DNA from: a virus | Taxonomy: Duplodnaviria; Heunggongvirae; Uroviricota; Caudoviricetes | Reading direction: 5' to 3' (one strand) | IMG/VR virus record: IMGVR_UViG_2703718855_000004 | Length of the DNA: 16,966 bases | Part shown: piece by piece, positions 774 through 15,640 of the stretch | Position numbering within the stretch: position 1 is the first letter of the stretch | How the letters are laid out: each line of letters opens with the position of its first letter | Made by a program: the position numbers and the translations under genes | The notes under the pieces: model-generated | Seen by the model: only the letters and a program-made list of their open reading frames with translations | What the model was told of the DNA's origin: nothing | Database searches by the model: none

Positions 774-1526
774 TCAGATTCCCTGGTGAGTAAGAATTTT
801 ACTTTCTGAACTGCTCTGAGAGTATTGACTTGGAGAAACACCAAAATAACGTCTAAATACATAAGTAAAGTATGAGACACTGGCATAACCACAGACCTTA
901 GCTACTTTACTAATAGGATAACAACGAGTGCTGAGTAAATATTCAGCCATTTGCATCCTCTCATCAAGTATGATCTTACTGAATGATACCCCCTCTTCTT
1001 TCAATTTCCTCTTTAGTAAACTTTCGCTGAGATATAATCTTGATGATATATCCTTAAGACGCCATGGTGCAGATAAATCCGTATGAATAATCGTTTTAAC
1101 TTTAGCCCCTGTGCTTTTCAAACATTCAAACAGAAATACTCCAAATTGTTTTTCAGAAGAAAATGCAGAGAGACATGTAAAAGCAATAGACTCATCAAAA
1201 ATTTCTATGTATTCAGCACAGTGATTAGCCCAACTAATTAATCCTTTAATTAAACTGAAGTCAGCAAAGTTTATTTTTAAATAAGATGGATATTCCCTAC
1301 AATCAGAAATATCCCTTAAGTTATTAGCTTTCAAATAGCGACTAATAAACTCAGCGCCAAAATCCGCCACTATCACTCTTTCAGGATATGTCAGGAAAAA
1401 ATCTCTAGAGCTAGAGTCGACAAGTACAGATGAACCTCTCTCCAGAAACACACTCTCTTTTCCGAAATAAACATCAAAGGACTCCAAAATCAATATAACT
1501 GAACATGTAGTTGCCATATCATCCAC
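774..1526 (-). CDS. AraC/XylS-family transcriptional regulator, YdeO/AppY/GadX-like
   Basis: 250-aa ORF. The C-terminus ...PWRLKDISSRLYLSESLLKRKLKEEGVSFSKIILDERMQMAEYLLSTRCYPISKVAKVCGYASVSYFTYVFRRYFGVSPSQY is the two-HTH AraC DNA-binding domain and aligns by eye with E. coli YdeO/AppY. The stop lies 2 nt from the IS2-like right end. Confidence 0.8.
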   Translation of the reverse strand: MDDMATTCSVILILESFDVYFGKESVFLERGSSVLVDSSSRDFFLTYPERVIVADFGAEFISRYLKANNLRDISDCREYPSYLKINFADFSLIKGLISWANHCAEYIEIFDESIAFTCLSAFSSEKQFGVFLFECLKSTGAKVKTIIHTDLSAPWRLKDISSRLYLSESLLKRKLKEEGVSFSKIILDERMQMAEYLLSTRCYPISKVAKVCGYASVSYFTYVFRRYFGVSPSQYSQSSSESKILTHQGI

Positions 1527-3021: not shown

Positions 3022-3603
3022 TTACCCTATAGGTGCTACTGGCCATTCAATATCCTGTGCAGTTGACGTATCAACACGGTTCAGCAATACCCGATACTTT
3101 TTCCAGGCTTCCAGCAACAAGGTTTCTTCCTCCGTTGCGATTTCCAGATCCACAGCATCCTGAAGCGGCGCTATATGCTCACTGGCTACCTGCATCAGGC
3201 TGTTTTTTGTTTCTTCCACCTCCCGGATCCGGAACAGTTTTTCTGCTTCCGTATCCTTCACCCAGGCTGTGCCGTTCCACTTCTGAAACTCCCCTTCCGG
3301 GGATAACCAGGTAACATTTTCCGGTAATGAGCCGAGTTCAGAAATAAATAACGCGTCCCCTGATGCCACGTCATAAACTGTTTTACCCCGATGGTCTTCA
3401 ACAAGATGCCACGATGACTCATCACTGTTGAAAACAGCCACGAAGCCAGCCGGAATATCTGGCGGTGCAATATCGGTACTGTTTGCTGGCAGACCTGTAT
3501 GAGGCGGAATATATGCATCACCTTCACCAATAAATTCATTAGTTCCGGCCAGCAGATTATAAATTTTTATGGTCCGTGGTTGTTCACTCATTCTGAATGC
3601 CAT
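3022..3603 (-). CDS. tfa: Tail fiber assembly protein Tfa (lambda-type)
   Basis: 193-aa [47 protein letters not shown]... is collinear over its full length with lambda Tfa as I recall it. Confidence 0.9.
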
Positions 3604-3848
3604 TAACCAACACGGGCAGACTTCACCACATTCACCTCGCGGATGTAGTCGCTGCCCATCGCATTCATGATGGCCCGCTGAAAGGGCAGTGTTTCCCAGC
3701 GCCCTTCCTGGTATGCGGATTCTTTCGGGAGATAGTAATTAGCATCCGCCCATTCAACGGCGGTCTGTGGCTCCGGCCTGAACAGTGAGCGAAGCCCGGC
3801 GCGGACAAAATGCCGCAGCCTGTTAACCTGACTGTTCGATATATTCAC
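3603..3848 (-). pseudogene. Terminase large subunit (gpA) N-terminal fragment, about 81 codons, stop overlapping the tfa start
   Basis: [81 protein letters not shown] matches the first ~81 residues of lambda gpA, then stops. The stop and the tfa ATG overlap (TAATG). The rest of A and all head and tail genes are missing. Confidence 0.85.
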
Positions 3849-4368
3849 TCAGCAACCCCGGTATCAGTTCATCCAGCGCGGCTGCTTTGTTCATGGCTTT
3901 GATGATATCCCGTTTCAGGAAATCAACATGTCGGTTTTCCAGTTCCGGAAAACGCCGCTGCACCGACAGGGGGATCCCGTCGAGAATACTGGCAATTTCA
4001 CCTGCGATCCGCGACAACACGAAAGTACAGAATGCGGTTTCCACCACTTCAGCGGAGTCTCTGGCATTCTTCAGTTCCTGTGCGTCGGCCTGCGCACGCG
4101 TAAGTCGATGGCGTTCGTACTCAATAGTCCCTGGCTGGAGATCTGCCTCGCTGGCCTGCCGCAGTTCTTCAACCTCCCGGCGCAGCTTTTCGTTCTCAAT
4201 TTCAGCATCCCTTTCGGCATACCATTTTATGACGGCGGCAGAGTCATAAAGCACCTCATTACCCTTGCCACCGCCTCGCAGAACGGGCATTCCCTGTTCC
4301 TGCCAGTTCTGAATGGTACGGATACTCGCACCGAAAATGTCAGCCAGCTGCTTTTTGTTGACTTCCAT
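3823..4368 (-). CDS. nohD: Terminase small subunit Nu1 (lambda-type)
   Basis: 181-aa ORF MEVNKKQLADIFGASIRTIQNWQEQGMPVLRGGGKGNEVLYDSAAVIKWYAERD... is full-length and collinear with lambda Nu1. Its 3' end overlaps the gpA fragment start as in lambda. The symbol is chosen by analogy with K-12 cryptic-prophage naming. Confidence 0.85.
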   Translation of the reverse strand: MEVNKKQLADIFGASIRTIQNWQEQGMPVLRGGGKGNEVLYDSAAVIKWYAERDAEIENEKLRREVEELRQASEADLQPGTIEYERHRLTRAQADAQELKNARDSAEVVETAFCTFVLSRIAGEIASILDGIPLSVQRRFPELENRHVDFLKRDIIKAMNKAAALDELIPGLLSEYIEQSG

Positions 4369-4600
4369 TGTTCATTCCACGGACAAAAACAGAGAAAGGA
4401 AACGACAGAGGCCAAAAAGCTCGCTTTCAGCACCTGTCGCTTCCTTTCTTTTCAGAGGGTATTTTAAATAAAAACATTAAGTTATGACGAAGAAGAACGG
4501 AAACGCCTTAAACCGGAAAATTTTCATAAATAGCGAAAACCCGCGAGGTCGCCGCCCCGTAACCTGTCGGATCGCCGGAAAGGACCCGCAAAATGATAAT
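4369..4600. other. cos site (cosB, cosN, cosQ side), lambda-type; 12-nt cohesive-end sequence at 4546..4557
   Basis: The reverse complement of 4369..4577 reads ...CGACAGGTTACG|GGGCGGCGACCTCGCGGGTTTTCGCTATTTATGAAAATTTTCCGGTTTAAGGCG...TTTGTCCGTGGAATGAACA, matching the joined lambda right end and left end upstream of Nu1. Confidence 0.75.
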
Positions 4601-8390: not shown

Positions 8391-9473
8391 ATGAAAAAAT
8401 TAACAGTGGCAATTTCTGCTGTAGCTGCATCAGTACTGATGGCGATGTCTGCTCAGGCAGCTGAAATTTATAATAAAGACAGTAACAAGCTGGATCTGTA
8501 CGGGAAAGTTAATGCTAAGCACTACTTCTCCTCTAATGATGCAGATGATGGTGATACTACTTATGCCCGTCTTGGCTTCAAAGGTGAAACCCAAATCAAC
8601 GATCAACTGACTGGTTTCGGTCAGTGGGAATATGAATTCAAAGGCAACCGCGCTGAATCTCAAGGTTCCTCCAAAGATAAAACCCGTCTTGCCTTCGCTG
8701 GCCTGAAATTCGGTGACTACGGCTCCATCGATTATGGCCGTAACTACGGTGTAGCATACGATATTGGTGCATGGACCGACGTTCTGCCAGAATTCGGTGG
8801 CGATACCTGGACCCAAACAGATGTATTCATGACTGGTCGCACCACAGGTGTTGCAACTTATCGTAACAATGACTTCTTTGGTCTGGTTGATGGTCTGAAC
8901 TTTGCTGCTCAGTATCAGGGTAAAAATGACCGCACTGACGTAACTGAAGCTAATGGTGATGGTTTCGGTTTCTCCACTACTTATGAGTATGAAGGATTCG
9001 GTGTAGGTGCAACCTATGCTAAATCTGACCGCACTAATAATCAGGTTATCTACGGTAACAACAGCCTGAATGCATCTGGTCAAAATGCTGAAGTATGGGC
9101 AGCTGGTCTGAAATATGATGCGAACAACATCTATCTGGCTACCACCTATTCTGAAACCCAGAACATGACTGTTTTTGGTAATAACCATATTGCCAACAAA
9201 GCACAAAACTTCGAAGTAGTTGCACAATATCAGTTCGACTTCGGTCTGCGTCCGTCCGTTGCTTACCTGCAATCTAAAGGAAAAGACTTGGGTGCGTGGG
9301 GTGATCAGGACCTGGTTGAATATATTGATGTAGGTGCAACCTATTACTTCAACAAAAATATGTCCACTTTTGTTGATTACAAAATCAACCTGATTGATAA
9401 GAGCGATTTCACGAAAGCATCTGGCGTTGCTACCGATGATATCGTTGCTGTAGGTATGGTTTACCAGTTCTAA
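8391..9473 (+). CDS. nmpC: General porin of the OmpC/OmpF/PhoE family, prophage-encoded (NmpC/Lc-type), apparently intact
   Basis: 360-aa product [23 protein letters not shown]|[23 protein letters not shown]... has a signal peptide, the porin N-terminal motif, and a C-terminal ...GMVYQF with terminal Phe typical of OM beta-barrels. The start was chosen at 8391, not the ORF-track 8331. Confidence 0.9.
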
Positions 9474-10630: not shown

Positions 10631-10917
10631 GCCTTAATAACCCCCTCTTTCAGCCAGATAACCTGTGTTCTCGCCATACCTTCCAGCGCGCATTCTTTTG
10701 CATATGCAGCATCGACAAAATGTGTGCGGCGGTCGATTTCGTCGTGGCAGGCAGAACATGCAATGGTGGCAATCAGGTCTGGCGGTTTCGTACCGGTGCC
10801 GCACAATCCAGTCAGCCGGATATGTGCCAGTACAGACGTTTCAGGGTTGCCATTACATACGCCAGGGATTCTTACCTGGCATTCCCGACCACGCGCTGCT
10901 TTTCTCAAATCAGCCAT
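10627..10917 (-). CDS. ybcO: Nin-region protein YbcO (DUF1364, Cys-rich putative nuclease)
   Basis: 96-aa product [64 protein letters not shown]... (start 13 codons inside the ORF-track start). It overlaps rusA by 4 nt. Confidence 0.85.
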
Positions 10918-13183: not shown

Positions 13184-13340
13184 ACATGTATTAAAAAAAT
13201 GATATTTTTATGTACATAGTCTATTGAAAATTGCCGCGATAAAATGCCAACACCCGCTTCATCGCGGCACTCTGGCGACACTCCTTGAAAATCAGATTCG
13301 TGCTCACCTTTCCTTCCCGTTCTTCCCTGGTAGCGAACCG

Positions 13341-13789
13341 GTAATCATCCGATCTGCGTTACCGAGTGGATGGATGAATGCCGCCGCGAACCATTCAAAA
13401 CCCGCGAAGGCAGAGAAATTACGGGGCCGTGGCAGTCGCATCCCAAACGGATGTTACGGCATAAAGCCATGATTCAGTGTGCCCGTCTGGCCTTCGGATT
13501 TGCTGGTATCTATGACAAGGATGAAGCCGAGCGCATTGTCGAAAATACCGCATACACCGCAGAACGTCAGCCGGAACGCGACATTACTCCGGTTAACGAT
13601 GAAACCATGCAGGAGATTAACACTCTGCTGATTGCCCTGGACAAAACATGGGATGACGACTTATTGCCGCTCTGTTCCCAGATATTTCGCCGCGACATTC
13701 GCGCATCGTCAGAACTGACACAGGCCGAAGCAGTGAAAGCTCTTGGATTCCTGAAACAGAAAGCCACTGAGCAGAAGGTGGCAGCATGA
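13341..13789 (+). pseudogene. bet: bet (Red-beta recombinase), 5'-truncated; only the C-terminal ~149 codons remain
   Basis: From about 13341 the frame reads (G)NHPICVTEWMDECRREPFKTREGREITGPWQSHPKRMLRHKAMIQCARLAFGFAGIYDKDEAERIVENTAYTAERQ...KVAA, matching the C-terminal part of lambda Bet. There is an in-frame stop at 13331..13333 and unrelated sequence upstream. Confidence 0.85.
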
Positions 13790-14466
13790 CACCGGACATT
13801 ATCCTGCAGCGTACCGGGATCGACGTGAGAGCTGTCGAACAGGGGGATGATGCATGGCACAAATTACGGCTCGGCGTCATCACCGCTTCAGAAGTTCACA
13901 ACGTGATAGCCAAGCCCCGCTCAGGAAAGAAGTGGCCTGACATGAAAATGTCCTACTTCCACACCCTGCTGGCTGAGGTTTGCACCGGTGTGGCTCCGGA
14001 AGTTAATGCTAAGGCGCTGGCATGGGGAAAACAGTACGAGAACGACGCCAGAACCCTGTTTGAATTCACTTCCGGCGTGAATGTTACTGAATCCCCGATC
14101 ATCTATCGCGACGAAAGTATGCGCACCGCCTGCTCTCCCGATGGTTTATGCAGTGACGGCAATGGCCTTGAGCTGAAATGCCCGTTTACCTCCCGGGATT
14201 TCATGAAGTTCCGGCTCGGTGGTTTCGAGGCCATAAAGTCGGCTTACATGGCCCAGGTGCAGTACAGCATGTGGGTGACACGAAAAGATGCCTGGTACTT
14301 TGCCAACTATGACCCGCGTATGAAGCGTGAAGGACTGCATTATGTCGTGGTTGAGCGGGATGAAAAGTACATGGCGAGTTTTGACGAGATGGTGCCGGTG
14401 TTCATCGAAAAAATGGACGAGGCACTGGCTGAAATTGGTTTTGTATTTGGGGAGCAATGGCGATGA
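13786..14466 (+). CDS. exo: Lambda exonuclease (Red-alpha), full length
   Basis: 226-aa [68 protein letters not shown]...GEQWR is collinear with lambda Exo over its full length, with only a few substitutions from the recalled sequence. The start overlaps the bet stop (ATGA). Confidence 0.95.
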
Positions 14467-15548
14467 CGCATCCTCACGATAATATCCGGGTAGGCGCAAT
14501 CACTTTCGTCTACTCCGTTAACCTTTATATAAGAAACAATGGATATTACTGCTACAGGGACCCAAGGACGGGTAAAGAGTTTGGATTAGGCCGAGACAGG
14601 CGAATCGCAATCACTGAAGCTATACAGGCCAACATTGAGTTATTTTCAGGACACAAACACAAGCCTCTGACAGCGAGAATCAACAGTGATAATTCCGTTA
14701 CGTTACATTCATGGCTTGATCGCTACGAAAAAATCCTGGCCAGCAGAGGAATCAAGCAGAAGACACTCATAAATTACATGAGCAAAATTAAAGCAATAAG
14801 GAGGGGTCTGCCTGATGCTCCACTTGAAGACATCACCACAAAAGAAATTGCGGCAATGCTCAATGGATACATAGACGAGGGAAAGGCGGCATCAGCCAAG
14901 TTAATCAGATCAACACTGAGCGATGCATTCCGAGAGGCTATGGCTGAAGGCCATATAACAACAAACCCGGTCGCAGCCACTCGCGCTGCAAAATCAGAGG
15001 TAAGGAGATCAAGACTTACGGCTGACGAATACCTGAAAATTTATCAAGCAGCAGAATCATCACCATGTTGGCTTAGACTTGCAATGGAACTGGCTGTTGT
15101 TACCGGGCAGCGAGTTGGTGATTTATGCGAAATGAAGTGGTCTGATATCGTAGATGGATATCTTTATGTCGAGCAAAGCAAAACAGGCGTAAAAATTGCC
15201 ATCCCAACAACATTGCATGTTGATGCTCTCGGGATATCAATGAAGGAAACACTTGATAAATGCAAAAAGATTCTTGGCGGAGAAACCATAATTGCATCTA
15301 CTCGTCGTGAACCGCTTTCATCCGGCACAGTATCAAGGTATTTTATGCGCGCACGAAAAGCATCAGGTCTCTCCTTCGAAGGGGATCCGCCAACCTTTCA
15401 CGAGTTGCGCAGTTTGTCTGCAAGACTCTATGAGAAGCAGATAAGCGATAAATTTGCTCAACATCTTCTCGGGCATAAGTCGGACACCATGGCATCACAG
15501 TATCGTGATGACAGAGGCAGGGAGTGGGACAAAATTGAAATCAAATAA
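14457..15548 (+). CDS. int: Lambda-type integrase (tyrosine recombinase) with replaced N-terminus: 22 codons matching the start of lambda orf60a are fused in frame to Int from about residue 16
   Basis: 363-aa [25 protein letters not shown]|[27 protein letters not shown]... After the junction (nt ~14520) it is near-identical to lambda Int and retains the catalytic residues (R in VTGQRVGD, K in SKTGVK, H-x-x-R in [10 protein letters not shown] and Y in [11 protein letters not shown]). The start overlaps the exo stop. Confidence 0.88.
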
Positions 15549-15640
15549 TGATTTTATTTTGACTGATAGTGACCTGTTCGTTGCAACAAATTGATAAGCA
15601 ATGCTTTTTTATAATGCCAACTTAGTATAAAAAAGCAGGC
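15549..15640. other. attL prophage-host junction (B-O-P'); core O at 15622..15636, P' arm on the int side
   Basis: The reverse complement reads GCCTGCTTTTTTATACTAAGTTGGCATTATAAAAAAGCATTGCTTATCAATTTGTTGCAACGAACAGGTCACTATCAGTCAAAATAAAATCATTATTTGA: the lambda 15-bp core GCTTTTTTATACTAA with the P' arm on one side and the bacterial B half-site (GCCTGC) on the ybhC side. Confidence 0.88.

Follow-up and report, generated by a model that had tools for sequence, protein, structure and literature searches.

Two described elements close to the locus analysed here are phage lambda itself and DLP12, the prophage of Escherichia coli K-12. In a stretch of 3,353 bp that takes in R, Rz, cos, nu1 and a truncated gene A (A'), DLP12 is 98% identical to lambda; it recombines at high frequency with infecting lambda, and its nu1 gene works in lambda (PMC3945230). 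The K-12 DLP12 junction between gene A and tfa joins lambda position 1018 to 22119 at a TAT microhomology, a 1018::22119 junction that 366 of 5,426 complete E. coli genomes share, many of the carriers being laboratory derivatives. In MG1655 the product of this join (aaaD'::tfaD', 17355–18098 of the locus sequence) is an in-frame chimera of 247 aa made of gpA 1–103 and Tfa from about residue 50; the annotated K-12 tfaD coding sequence begins at an internal methionine of A' and then crosses the junction. As Bobay et al. 2014 are said to have reported, prophages are rapidly inactivated and then more slowly degraded.

The stretch of DNA considered here, which we call the window, is 16,966 nucleotides long and is identical to positions 1382101–1399066 (reverse strand) of the E. 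coli VG48B2 chromosome (NZ_CP128584.1). The element sits between ybhC and ybhB/bioA, not at argU. A perfect 15-bp lambda att core (GCTTTTTTATACTAA, 15622–15636, minus strand; attL) lies between ybhC and a lambda-type int remnant that adjoins it, and an attR core with one mismatch lies outside the window, some 225 bp from position 1 and a little upstream of ybhB. Since the lambda att cores lie between ybhC and ybhB, the element evidently is a defective prophage at att-lambda and not DLP12 at argU. With respect to the marks of DLP12 itself, the window has the late region from quuD to nohD but lacks argU, intD and the appY-ompT-envY group, as well as the 1018::22119 junction.

Several other features of this prophage can be described in passing. 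An ORF of 363 codons (14463–15548, plus strand), which RefSeq labels “DUF1317 family protein”, consists of about the first 22 codons of a DUF1317 gene fused in frame to a lambda-type Int from about residue 16; the fusion junction, at about 14519–14520, was made by a deletion of 3,006 bp, private to VG48B2, that took out xis and the genes between int and the DUF1317 gene. Downstream of tfa, at the position that appY occupies in DLP12, there is a gene for an AraC-family regulator (774–1517, minus strand) whose product is 29% identical to AppY (67/233), and fragments of IS transposase genes (70–732) adjoin it just inside attR. The nmpC/ompC-type porin gene (8391–9473, plus strand; 1,083 nt) is intact, whereas the K-12 DLP12 copy is broken by IS5.

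The genes around the scar all lie on the minus strand. The cohesive-end 12-mer of cosN, GGGCGGCGACCT, can be read directly at 4546–4557, and cosB occupies about 4369–4545, between cosN and nu1. The small terminase subunit gene, of the nu1/nohD type and named nohD in RefSeq, is intact at 3823–4368; its product of 181 aa matches the Pfam family Phage_Nu1 (PF07471; E 9e-101) and is identical to lambda Nu1 at 180 of 181 residues and to K-12 NohD at 179 of 181. It overlaps gene A (start 3848) by 26 nt, the same overlap as in lambda (191–736 / 711). The truncated gene A (3603–3848), a pseudogene according to RefSeq, has a GTG start, gpA codons 1–81 and then TAA. All of its 81 residues are identical to lambda gpA 1–81, and they cover positions 3–39 of the 247 in the Pfam profile GpA_ATPase with a score below the curated cut-off; of the complete large subunit (641 aa, with ATPase and nuclease domains) only codons 1–81 are left. 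The third gene is a full-length tail fibre assembly gene, tfa (3022–3603; 193 aa). Its product matches Caudo_TAP (PF02413; E 8e-43), is identical to lambda Tfa at 178 of 193 residues and colinear with it from residue 1, and belongs with the Tfa proteins; as WP_000885613.1, it is also found unchanged in four sibling prophages (A14, NCTC9040, PEC1009 and 23CRST021). The stop codon of A' (3605–3603), which is the original stf stop codon, and the tfa ATG (3603–3601) have one base in common, giving TAATG.

Over the 1,017 nt from 4620 to 3604 the window is 98.9–99.4% identical to lambda-type phages in a single piece, and all lambda-type phage matches over cos-nu1-A' end at position 3604. The window carries a lambda-type cos/terminase module, with cosN, cosB and a Nu1-family gene overlapping A. 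The first-pass annotation had read this region well: the A fragment does end exactly at the start of tfa, the downstream ORF is indeed tfa, the survivors are cos, Nu1 and tfa with no head or tail genes between nu1 and tfa, and the gene order resembles the nohD-aaaD'-tfaD' order of K-12.

The homology to gene A runs to lambda 955 (...CGTGTTGGTTA) and that to the stf stop and tfa start begins at lambda 21971 (TAATGGCATTC...). This lambda 955::21971 junction has a microhomology of 2 nt, TA, at window positions 3604–3605 (minus strand), which is common to A (lambda 954–955) and to the stf stop (lambda 21971–21972), and it has zero filler DNA. Alignments to A14, NCTC9104 and lambda abut there with a 2-nt overlap, the pattern of a microhomology-mediated deletion. 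The junction is a genuine rearrangement and not a chance arrangement of ORFs, and it was produced by an illegitimate recombination between the TA at codon 82 of gene A and the TA in the stf stop codon; the route could have been replication slippage, alternative end-joining or the action of a topoisomerase. Because this TA lies in the stf stop codon and the A frame coincides with the stf frame, the A stub terminates at the codon with which stf itself ends, and the TAATG at the start of tfa is preserved. What the join leaves is a gpA stub of 81 residues together with cos-nu1 and tfa, both of them intact, and tfa begins in its native context.

Other routes to such a join were considered and rejected. 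Site-specific recombination by Int or by a Pin/Gin-type enzyme does not fit, the two partners sharing only TA and the att core being present at the prophage end alone. We take TTATTCCAAAA to be loosely similar to a gix half-site, but the likeness was rejected because crossover belongs at the centre of such a site and the break would here fall on its outer edge. An IS-mediated adjacent deletion was also discarded, IS elements being absent from every junction inspected.

Among the 5,426 complete E. coli genomes the 955::21971 junction occurs once. Outside this set, a draft assembly (GCA_001576495.1) is 100% identical to the window over 6,246 bp across the junction, and since it includes the SNPs that are private to VG48B2 it belongs to the same lineage. 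The junction evidently is young and rare. When compared with five siblings and the cousin TUM1887, VG48B2 has as private point changes a 1-nt deletion (8130) and two SNPs (6832 and 6069); both SNPs are absent from all other complete genomes and present in the draft. It has the longest private branch, as well as the private 3,006-bp deletion mentioned above.

The siblings provide the most informative comparison. Twenty-three other complete genomes match the window at 99.9–100% identity, and none of the 23 has the spare length to hold a head and tail block. Eleven of them have the arrangement nohD – A' (350 codons, to lambda 1759) :: stf' (last 401 codons) – tfa, in which A at lambda 1759 is joined to nt 1760 of the 2,964 nt of stf through a microhomology of 7 nt; this junction is found in exactly 11 of the 5,426 complete genomes. 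The window is equivalent to this A14/NCTC9104-type structure minus exactly 2,002 bp, namely A codons 82–350 and the stf remnant. Four further siblings have junctions of their own: nohD nt 505 joined to lom', followed by a full stf and tfa, in PEC1009; nohD nt 360 joined to stf' in 23CRST021; nohD nt 47 joined to a point upstream of a full stf in NCTC9040; and, in E423, A at lambda 955 joined to a point 290 bp upstream of the AraC-family gene, with tfa deleted. These other junctions are mutually incompatible, and none of the four can be derived from A1759::stf. A cousin at the same site, TUM1887, is 99% identical and keeps cI, O, P, a full-length A, W, B, C', U, J, lom and stf.

A few observations on these relatives may be added. 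In A14 the A(lambda 1759)::stf junction lies at locus positions 10798–10804, and the carriers of this junction have since diverged in their early regions, which differ in length and have IS1 and ISEc52 insertions. The window also has an older deletion, at about 13337–13354, that left bet/recT' (13343–13789) head-to-head with ren' (13221–13343) and took out gam, the immunity region and the replication genes O and P. This deletion is present in all four of the siblings annotated there (A14, NCTC9104, PEC1009 and 23CRST021); E423 has a variant bet/ren junction with no recT fragment annotated, and TUM1887 is without the deletion.

We consider it very likely that the defective lambdoid prophage of E. 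coli VG48B2 at att-lambda has been eroded in steps, by microhomology-mediated deletions, and that the feature is the latest scar of this process. As to the last event, we lean towards a loss of only about 2 kb, from a remnant that had been gutted before and had the form nohD-A'(350 codons)::stf'(401 codons)-tfa. A remnant with the A1759::stf' junction, as in the nearest relatives, would have undergone the TA::TA join and would thereby have lost about 2 kb, not a block of about 21 kb.

Stepwise erosion is directly visible in other prophages as well, and the Nu1-A'-(stf')-tfa end state is reached through different junctions at three sites. At the DLP12 site there are, along with the K-12 junction (1018::22119), those of LR-45 (957::stf'), PSJ-16 (1452::22025) and PSS-08-1 (918::21993); at the Qin site strain 5735 has 957::22104 and EC556 has 1018::22104, while strain 2017.18.04CC retains between A' and tfa' a 127-nt relic of the capsid gene E (locus positions 4259–4381); and at att-lambda PSJ-12 has 880::stf', in addition to the sibling junctions given above. 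The 5735 junction can be derived from that of EC556 through a 61-nt slip between TTATT repeats, and the K-12 junction from that of PSJ-16 by a nested deletion. The Nu1-A'-tfa layout at three sites is most simply read as the convergent end state of stepwise erosion, for which a shared lesion would not be needed: the outermost genes of a dispensable block survive successive nested deletions, and so the layout recurs in DLP12, in Qin and in the window prophage. As a separate matter, the Qin remnants, whether they keep A957, A1018 or the gene E relic, are all joined at tfa position lambda 22104–22107; this lies within a GATATT...GATATT direct repeat of 15 nt, the second copy of which is used by the K-12 DLP12 junction.

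Among the alternatives, the one that survives best concerns the position of the break in gene A more than the number of steps, and it is compatible with a one-step or a two-step history alike. It supposes that the break was not random, that lambda 953–959 (and also 1016–1025) is a preferred point of breakage or of selection, and that the right end is merely a captured TA. We regard this as possible, although we do not favour it. The left breakpoint at lambda 953–959 (GGTTATTCC, gpA codons 81–83) recurs with many right partners in unrelated prophages, and there is a second cluster at gpA codons 102–105 (lambda 1016–1025, CCCTTATCTGGTTG). In E423 the left endpoint is identical to that of the window and is joined 1,780 bp further right (E423 locus 17090–17091); both LR-45 and the Qin strain 5735 break at lambda 957. 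Since the left endpoint falls at a recurrent breakpoint, the event may be something other than a chance use of microhomology. A census of 37 distinct chimeric gpA stubs, taken from two protein searches whose cluster representatives may not be independent events and some of whose contigs are only 200–300 nt long, has 8 of 37 ending at codons 81–83 (Bonferroni-corrected P = 0.003) and 13 of 37 at codons 102–105 (corrected P = 4e-7). Their right partners are W, D, E, Z, H, I, Lom, Stf, Tfa and even Nu1. A look-up of the exact 81-residue product, which is biased in that it requires a stop directly after codon 81, gave 358 collection blocks in at least seven junction contexts, all ending in ...GGTTA; these continue into tfa, the 3' end of J, nu3 (lambda 5271), three stf sites and one unidentified sequence, and TA or TTA precedes the native partner in all five of the contexts that are readable. 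Moreover, the stf site GGTATT/GGTGCTCATACGC has been joined independently to A at Y46, Y82 and L102/I103.

Such a preference may have one of several causes: replication could pause at a small quasi-palindrome, the P-loop-coding DNA could be nicked or cut with some site preference, or particular N-terminal stubs of gpA could be selected for. Codons 76–83 encode the Walker A motif of gpA, and GGTTATTCC lies at the end of this stretch. A TTGG/CCAA mini-hairpin has GGTTATTCC as its loop, and an imperfect hairpin of 45 nt lies between the two clusters, but these hairpins are weak (z = -2.6 on one strand and -0.9 on the other). The microhomologies at the breakpoints, either AT-only (TA, TAT, TATT) or GTTAT, are no longer than 2–5 nt, there is no Chi nearby, and no enzyme motif gives a convincing match. 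Also against selection or breakage at a preferred point is the fact that lambda plates normally on K-12, which carries gpA stubs. Among the particular candidates that were tried, a Chi-dependent protection of the left end was rejected, there being no Chi in nu1-A' and none in the first 24 kb of lambda; in TUM1887 the first Chi sites are 17.7 and 20.5 kb downstream, and inspection by eye finds only Chi-like matches (6–7/8) near the breakpoint. A likeness of GGTTA to the left half of cosN is out of register with the nick positions, and the gyrase consensus YRTGNYNNY fits lambda 945–953 and nothing at the second cluster, so that we judged it a chance match. Our literature searches found no account of these junction alleles and none of a clustering of breakpoints within gene A, and nothing usable on the gpA Walker A sequence or the K76 motif.

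The broader proposition, that gene A has preferred severing points at codons 81–83 and 102–105 where prophages of the DLP12, Qin and att-lambda types have been cut repeatedly and joined to almost any downstream TA, is doubtful at present. If it were true, prophage disarmament would be partly directed, and the cause could be either a site-preferring lesion or replication pause or, perhaps, selection for a specific gpA stub that is harmless or useful and is retained alongside a functional Nu1 and cos.

A second alternative is that the scar was produced in the VG48B2 lineage by one deletion of about 20 kb, from gene A codon 81 to the start of tfa, at a time when all of the head and tail block was still present. 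The first-pass annotation had gone further and deduced from the clean junction the removal of the entire block in one event; this is unproven and now somewhat disfavoured, the closest relatives being already without the block and differing from the window by 2,002 bp. The junction is indeed clean, with no relic of an intervening gene, but a clean junction records only the last deletion that spans it, so a single removal of the whole block cannot be inferred from it; one-step and two-step origins leave the identical junction. The siblings retain different parts of the block, and their common ancestor must therefore have kept at least nohD, 1,050 nt or more of A, 438 nt or more of lom', and stf. 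There have been at least two large independent deletions within this clade of no more than three SNPs, which means that large deletions are frequent here and that a direct deletion of about 20 kb in the VG48B2 lineage would not be implausible. Against it, the block has been retained in none of the 23 near-identical siblings, and of the five resolved sibling junction types the A14 type is both the sole possible parent and the commonest (11 genomes). VG48B2 has, moreover, the longest private branch and a second private deletion. On balance we think the single deletion rather unlikely.

The flanking chromosome and the SNPs add little to this choice. All of the SNPs among the five compared siblings and VG48B2 are singletons and the tree is star-like. 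At least 58 genomes have an identical 10.1-kb left flank, and among them are strains that have another prophage or none at the site. For the 25-kb right flank the best matches have 2–6 mismatches and the three best are carriers of the A14 type, by a margin of 1–4 mismatches in a ranking that is unreliable, matches on minus-strand records having been split in two pieces with inflated scores. Among the complete genomes we found none that had the private SNPs of VG48B2 and still held the 2-kb intermediate.

A lesion that is ancestral and shared with K-12 DLP12, one event followed by divergence, had also been suggested by the first-pass annotation. The nohD-A'-tfa order is the same in both prophages, the late regions are about 98–99% identical and the spacing from essD to nohD is identical. 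The alignment to lambda and K-12, however, refutes the suggestion at the nucleotide level, since the junctions differ on both sides (955::21971 vs 1018::22119): K-12 DLP12 has kept 22 more A codons and has lost about the first 49 codons of tfa. Each junction thus retains sequence that is missing from the other, and neither can be derived from the other by further deletion; the window junction evidently is independent of that of DLP12. The integration sites (att-lambda, not argU) and the integrases also differ, the DLP12 site alone has at least four junctions (K-12, LR-45, PSJ-16 and PSS-08-1), and the two alleles are found in 1 and 366 of the 5,426 genomes, respectively. A shared and ancient lesion is accordingly highly improbable. 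Least credible of all, to the point of being negligible, is an artefact of assembly or annotation: although nu1-A' and tfa are multi-copy in E. coli genomes (a median of two matching places per genome) and repeats of this sort can mislead assembly programs, the window comes from a closed chromosome, its alignment with the siblings is colinear on either side until the same 2-nt overlap is reached, and the independent draft GCA_001576495.1 has the identical sequence across the junction, which excludes an assembly error.

The scar is a new allele of a known kind, and it belongs to ordinary prophage decay. Its interest lies in what may be read from such a junction. A clean join and the familiar Nu1-A'-tfa order show neither a single event nor a shared ancestry; the same layout arose repeatedly, at three chromosomal sites and through different junctions. 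The near-identical siblings form a natural time series, with at least six junction types within no more than three SNPs, which implies that deletion outpaces point mutation in the erosion of cryptic prophages. The recurrent breakpoints in gene A, if they are confirmed at the DNA level, would bear on the choice of sites in illegitimate recombination or on selection acting on terminase stubs.

In comparison with known systems, the nearest to the window are its A14/NCTC9104-type siblings, which agree with it in locus, bet'::ren' deletion and cargo, with 99.97–100% identity over the shared DNA; they differ in having 2,002 bp more at A'::stf' and 3,006 bp more in an intact int-xis region. With lambda the resemblance is about 99% over cos, nu1 and A codons 1–81, and the window tfa is 94% identical to that of lambda in DNA and 92% in protein; the TAATG overlap of stf and tfa is native there too, but 21,017 bp of lambda (956–21972) have no counterpart in the window. 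DLP12 has the same late gene order (quuD, porin, essD, rrrD, rzpD, bor, ybcV, ybcW, ylcI, nohD, A', tfa), its late region from quuD to nohD is about 98–99% identical with identical spacing, and RefSeq uses the DLP12 gene names in the window. Both prophages have a lambda-type cos and a nu1 nearly identical to that of lambda, and both have lost the morphogenesis block; the nu1 of DLP12 is the only one of the two that has been shown to work in lambda (PMC3945230). The differences are that DLP12 has argU and intD, whereas the window has att-lambda and a lambda-type int remnant; that DLP12 has the A103-Tfa50 in-frame chimera, whereas in the window A' ends at the stf stop and tfa is intact; and that the DLP12 cargo past tfa is ybcY-tfaX-appY-ompT, whereas the window has there the distant AraC-family gene.

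The Qin-type nohA-A'-tfa'-pinQ remnants have reached the same Nu1-A'-tfa end state as the window, with microhomology junctions at lambda 957 and 1018, but they lie at the locus on the ydfJ side, next to pinQ, their tfa is truncated at lambda 22104, and one variant has the capsid-gene relic. With respect to mechanism, models of the Glickman-Ripley type attribute deletion endpoints at quasi-palindromes to illegitimate recombination between short homologies. The window junction is like these in its 2-nt microhomology, its lack of filler and its break in the loop of a small inverted repeat, but its breakpoint recurs more strongly than a 2-nt repeat would predict.
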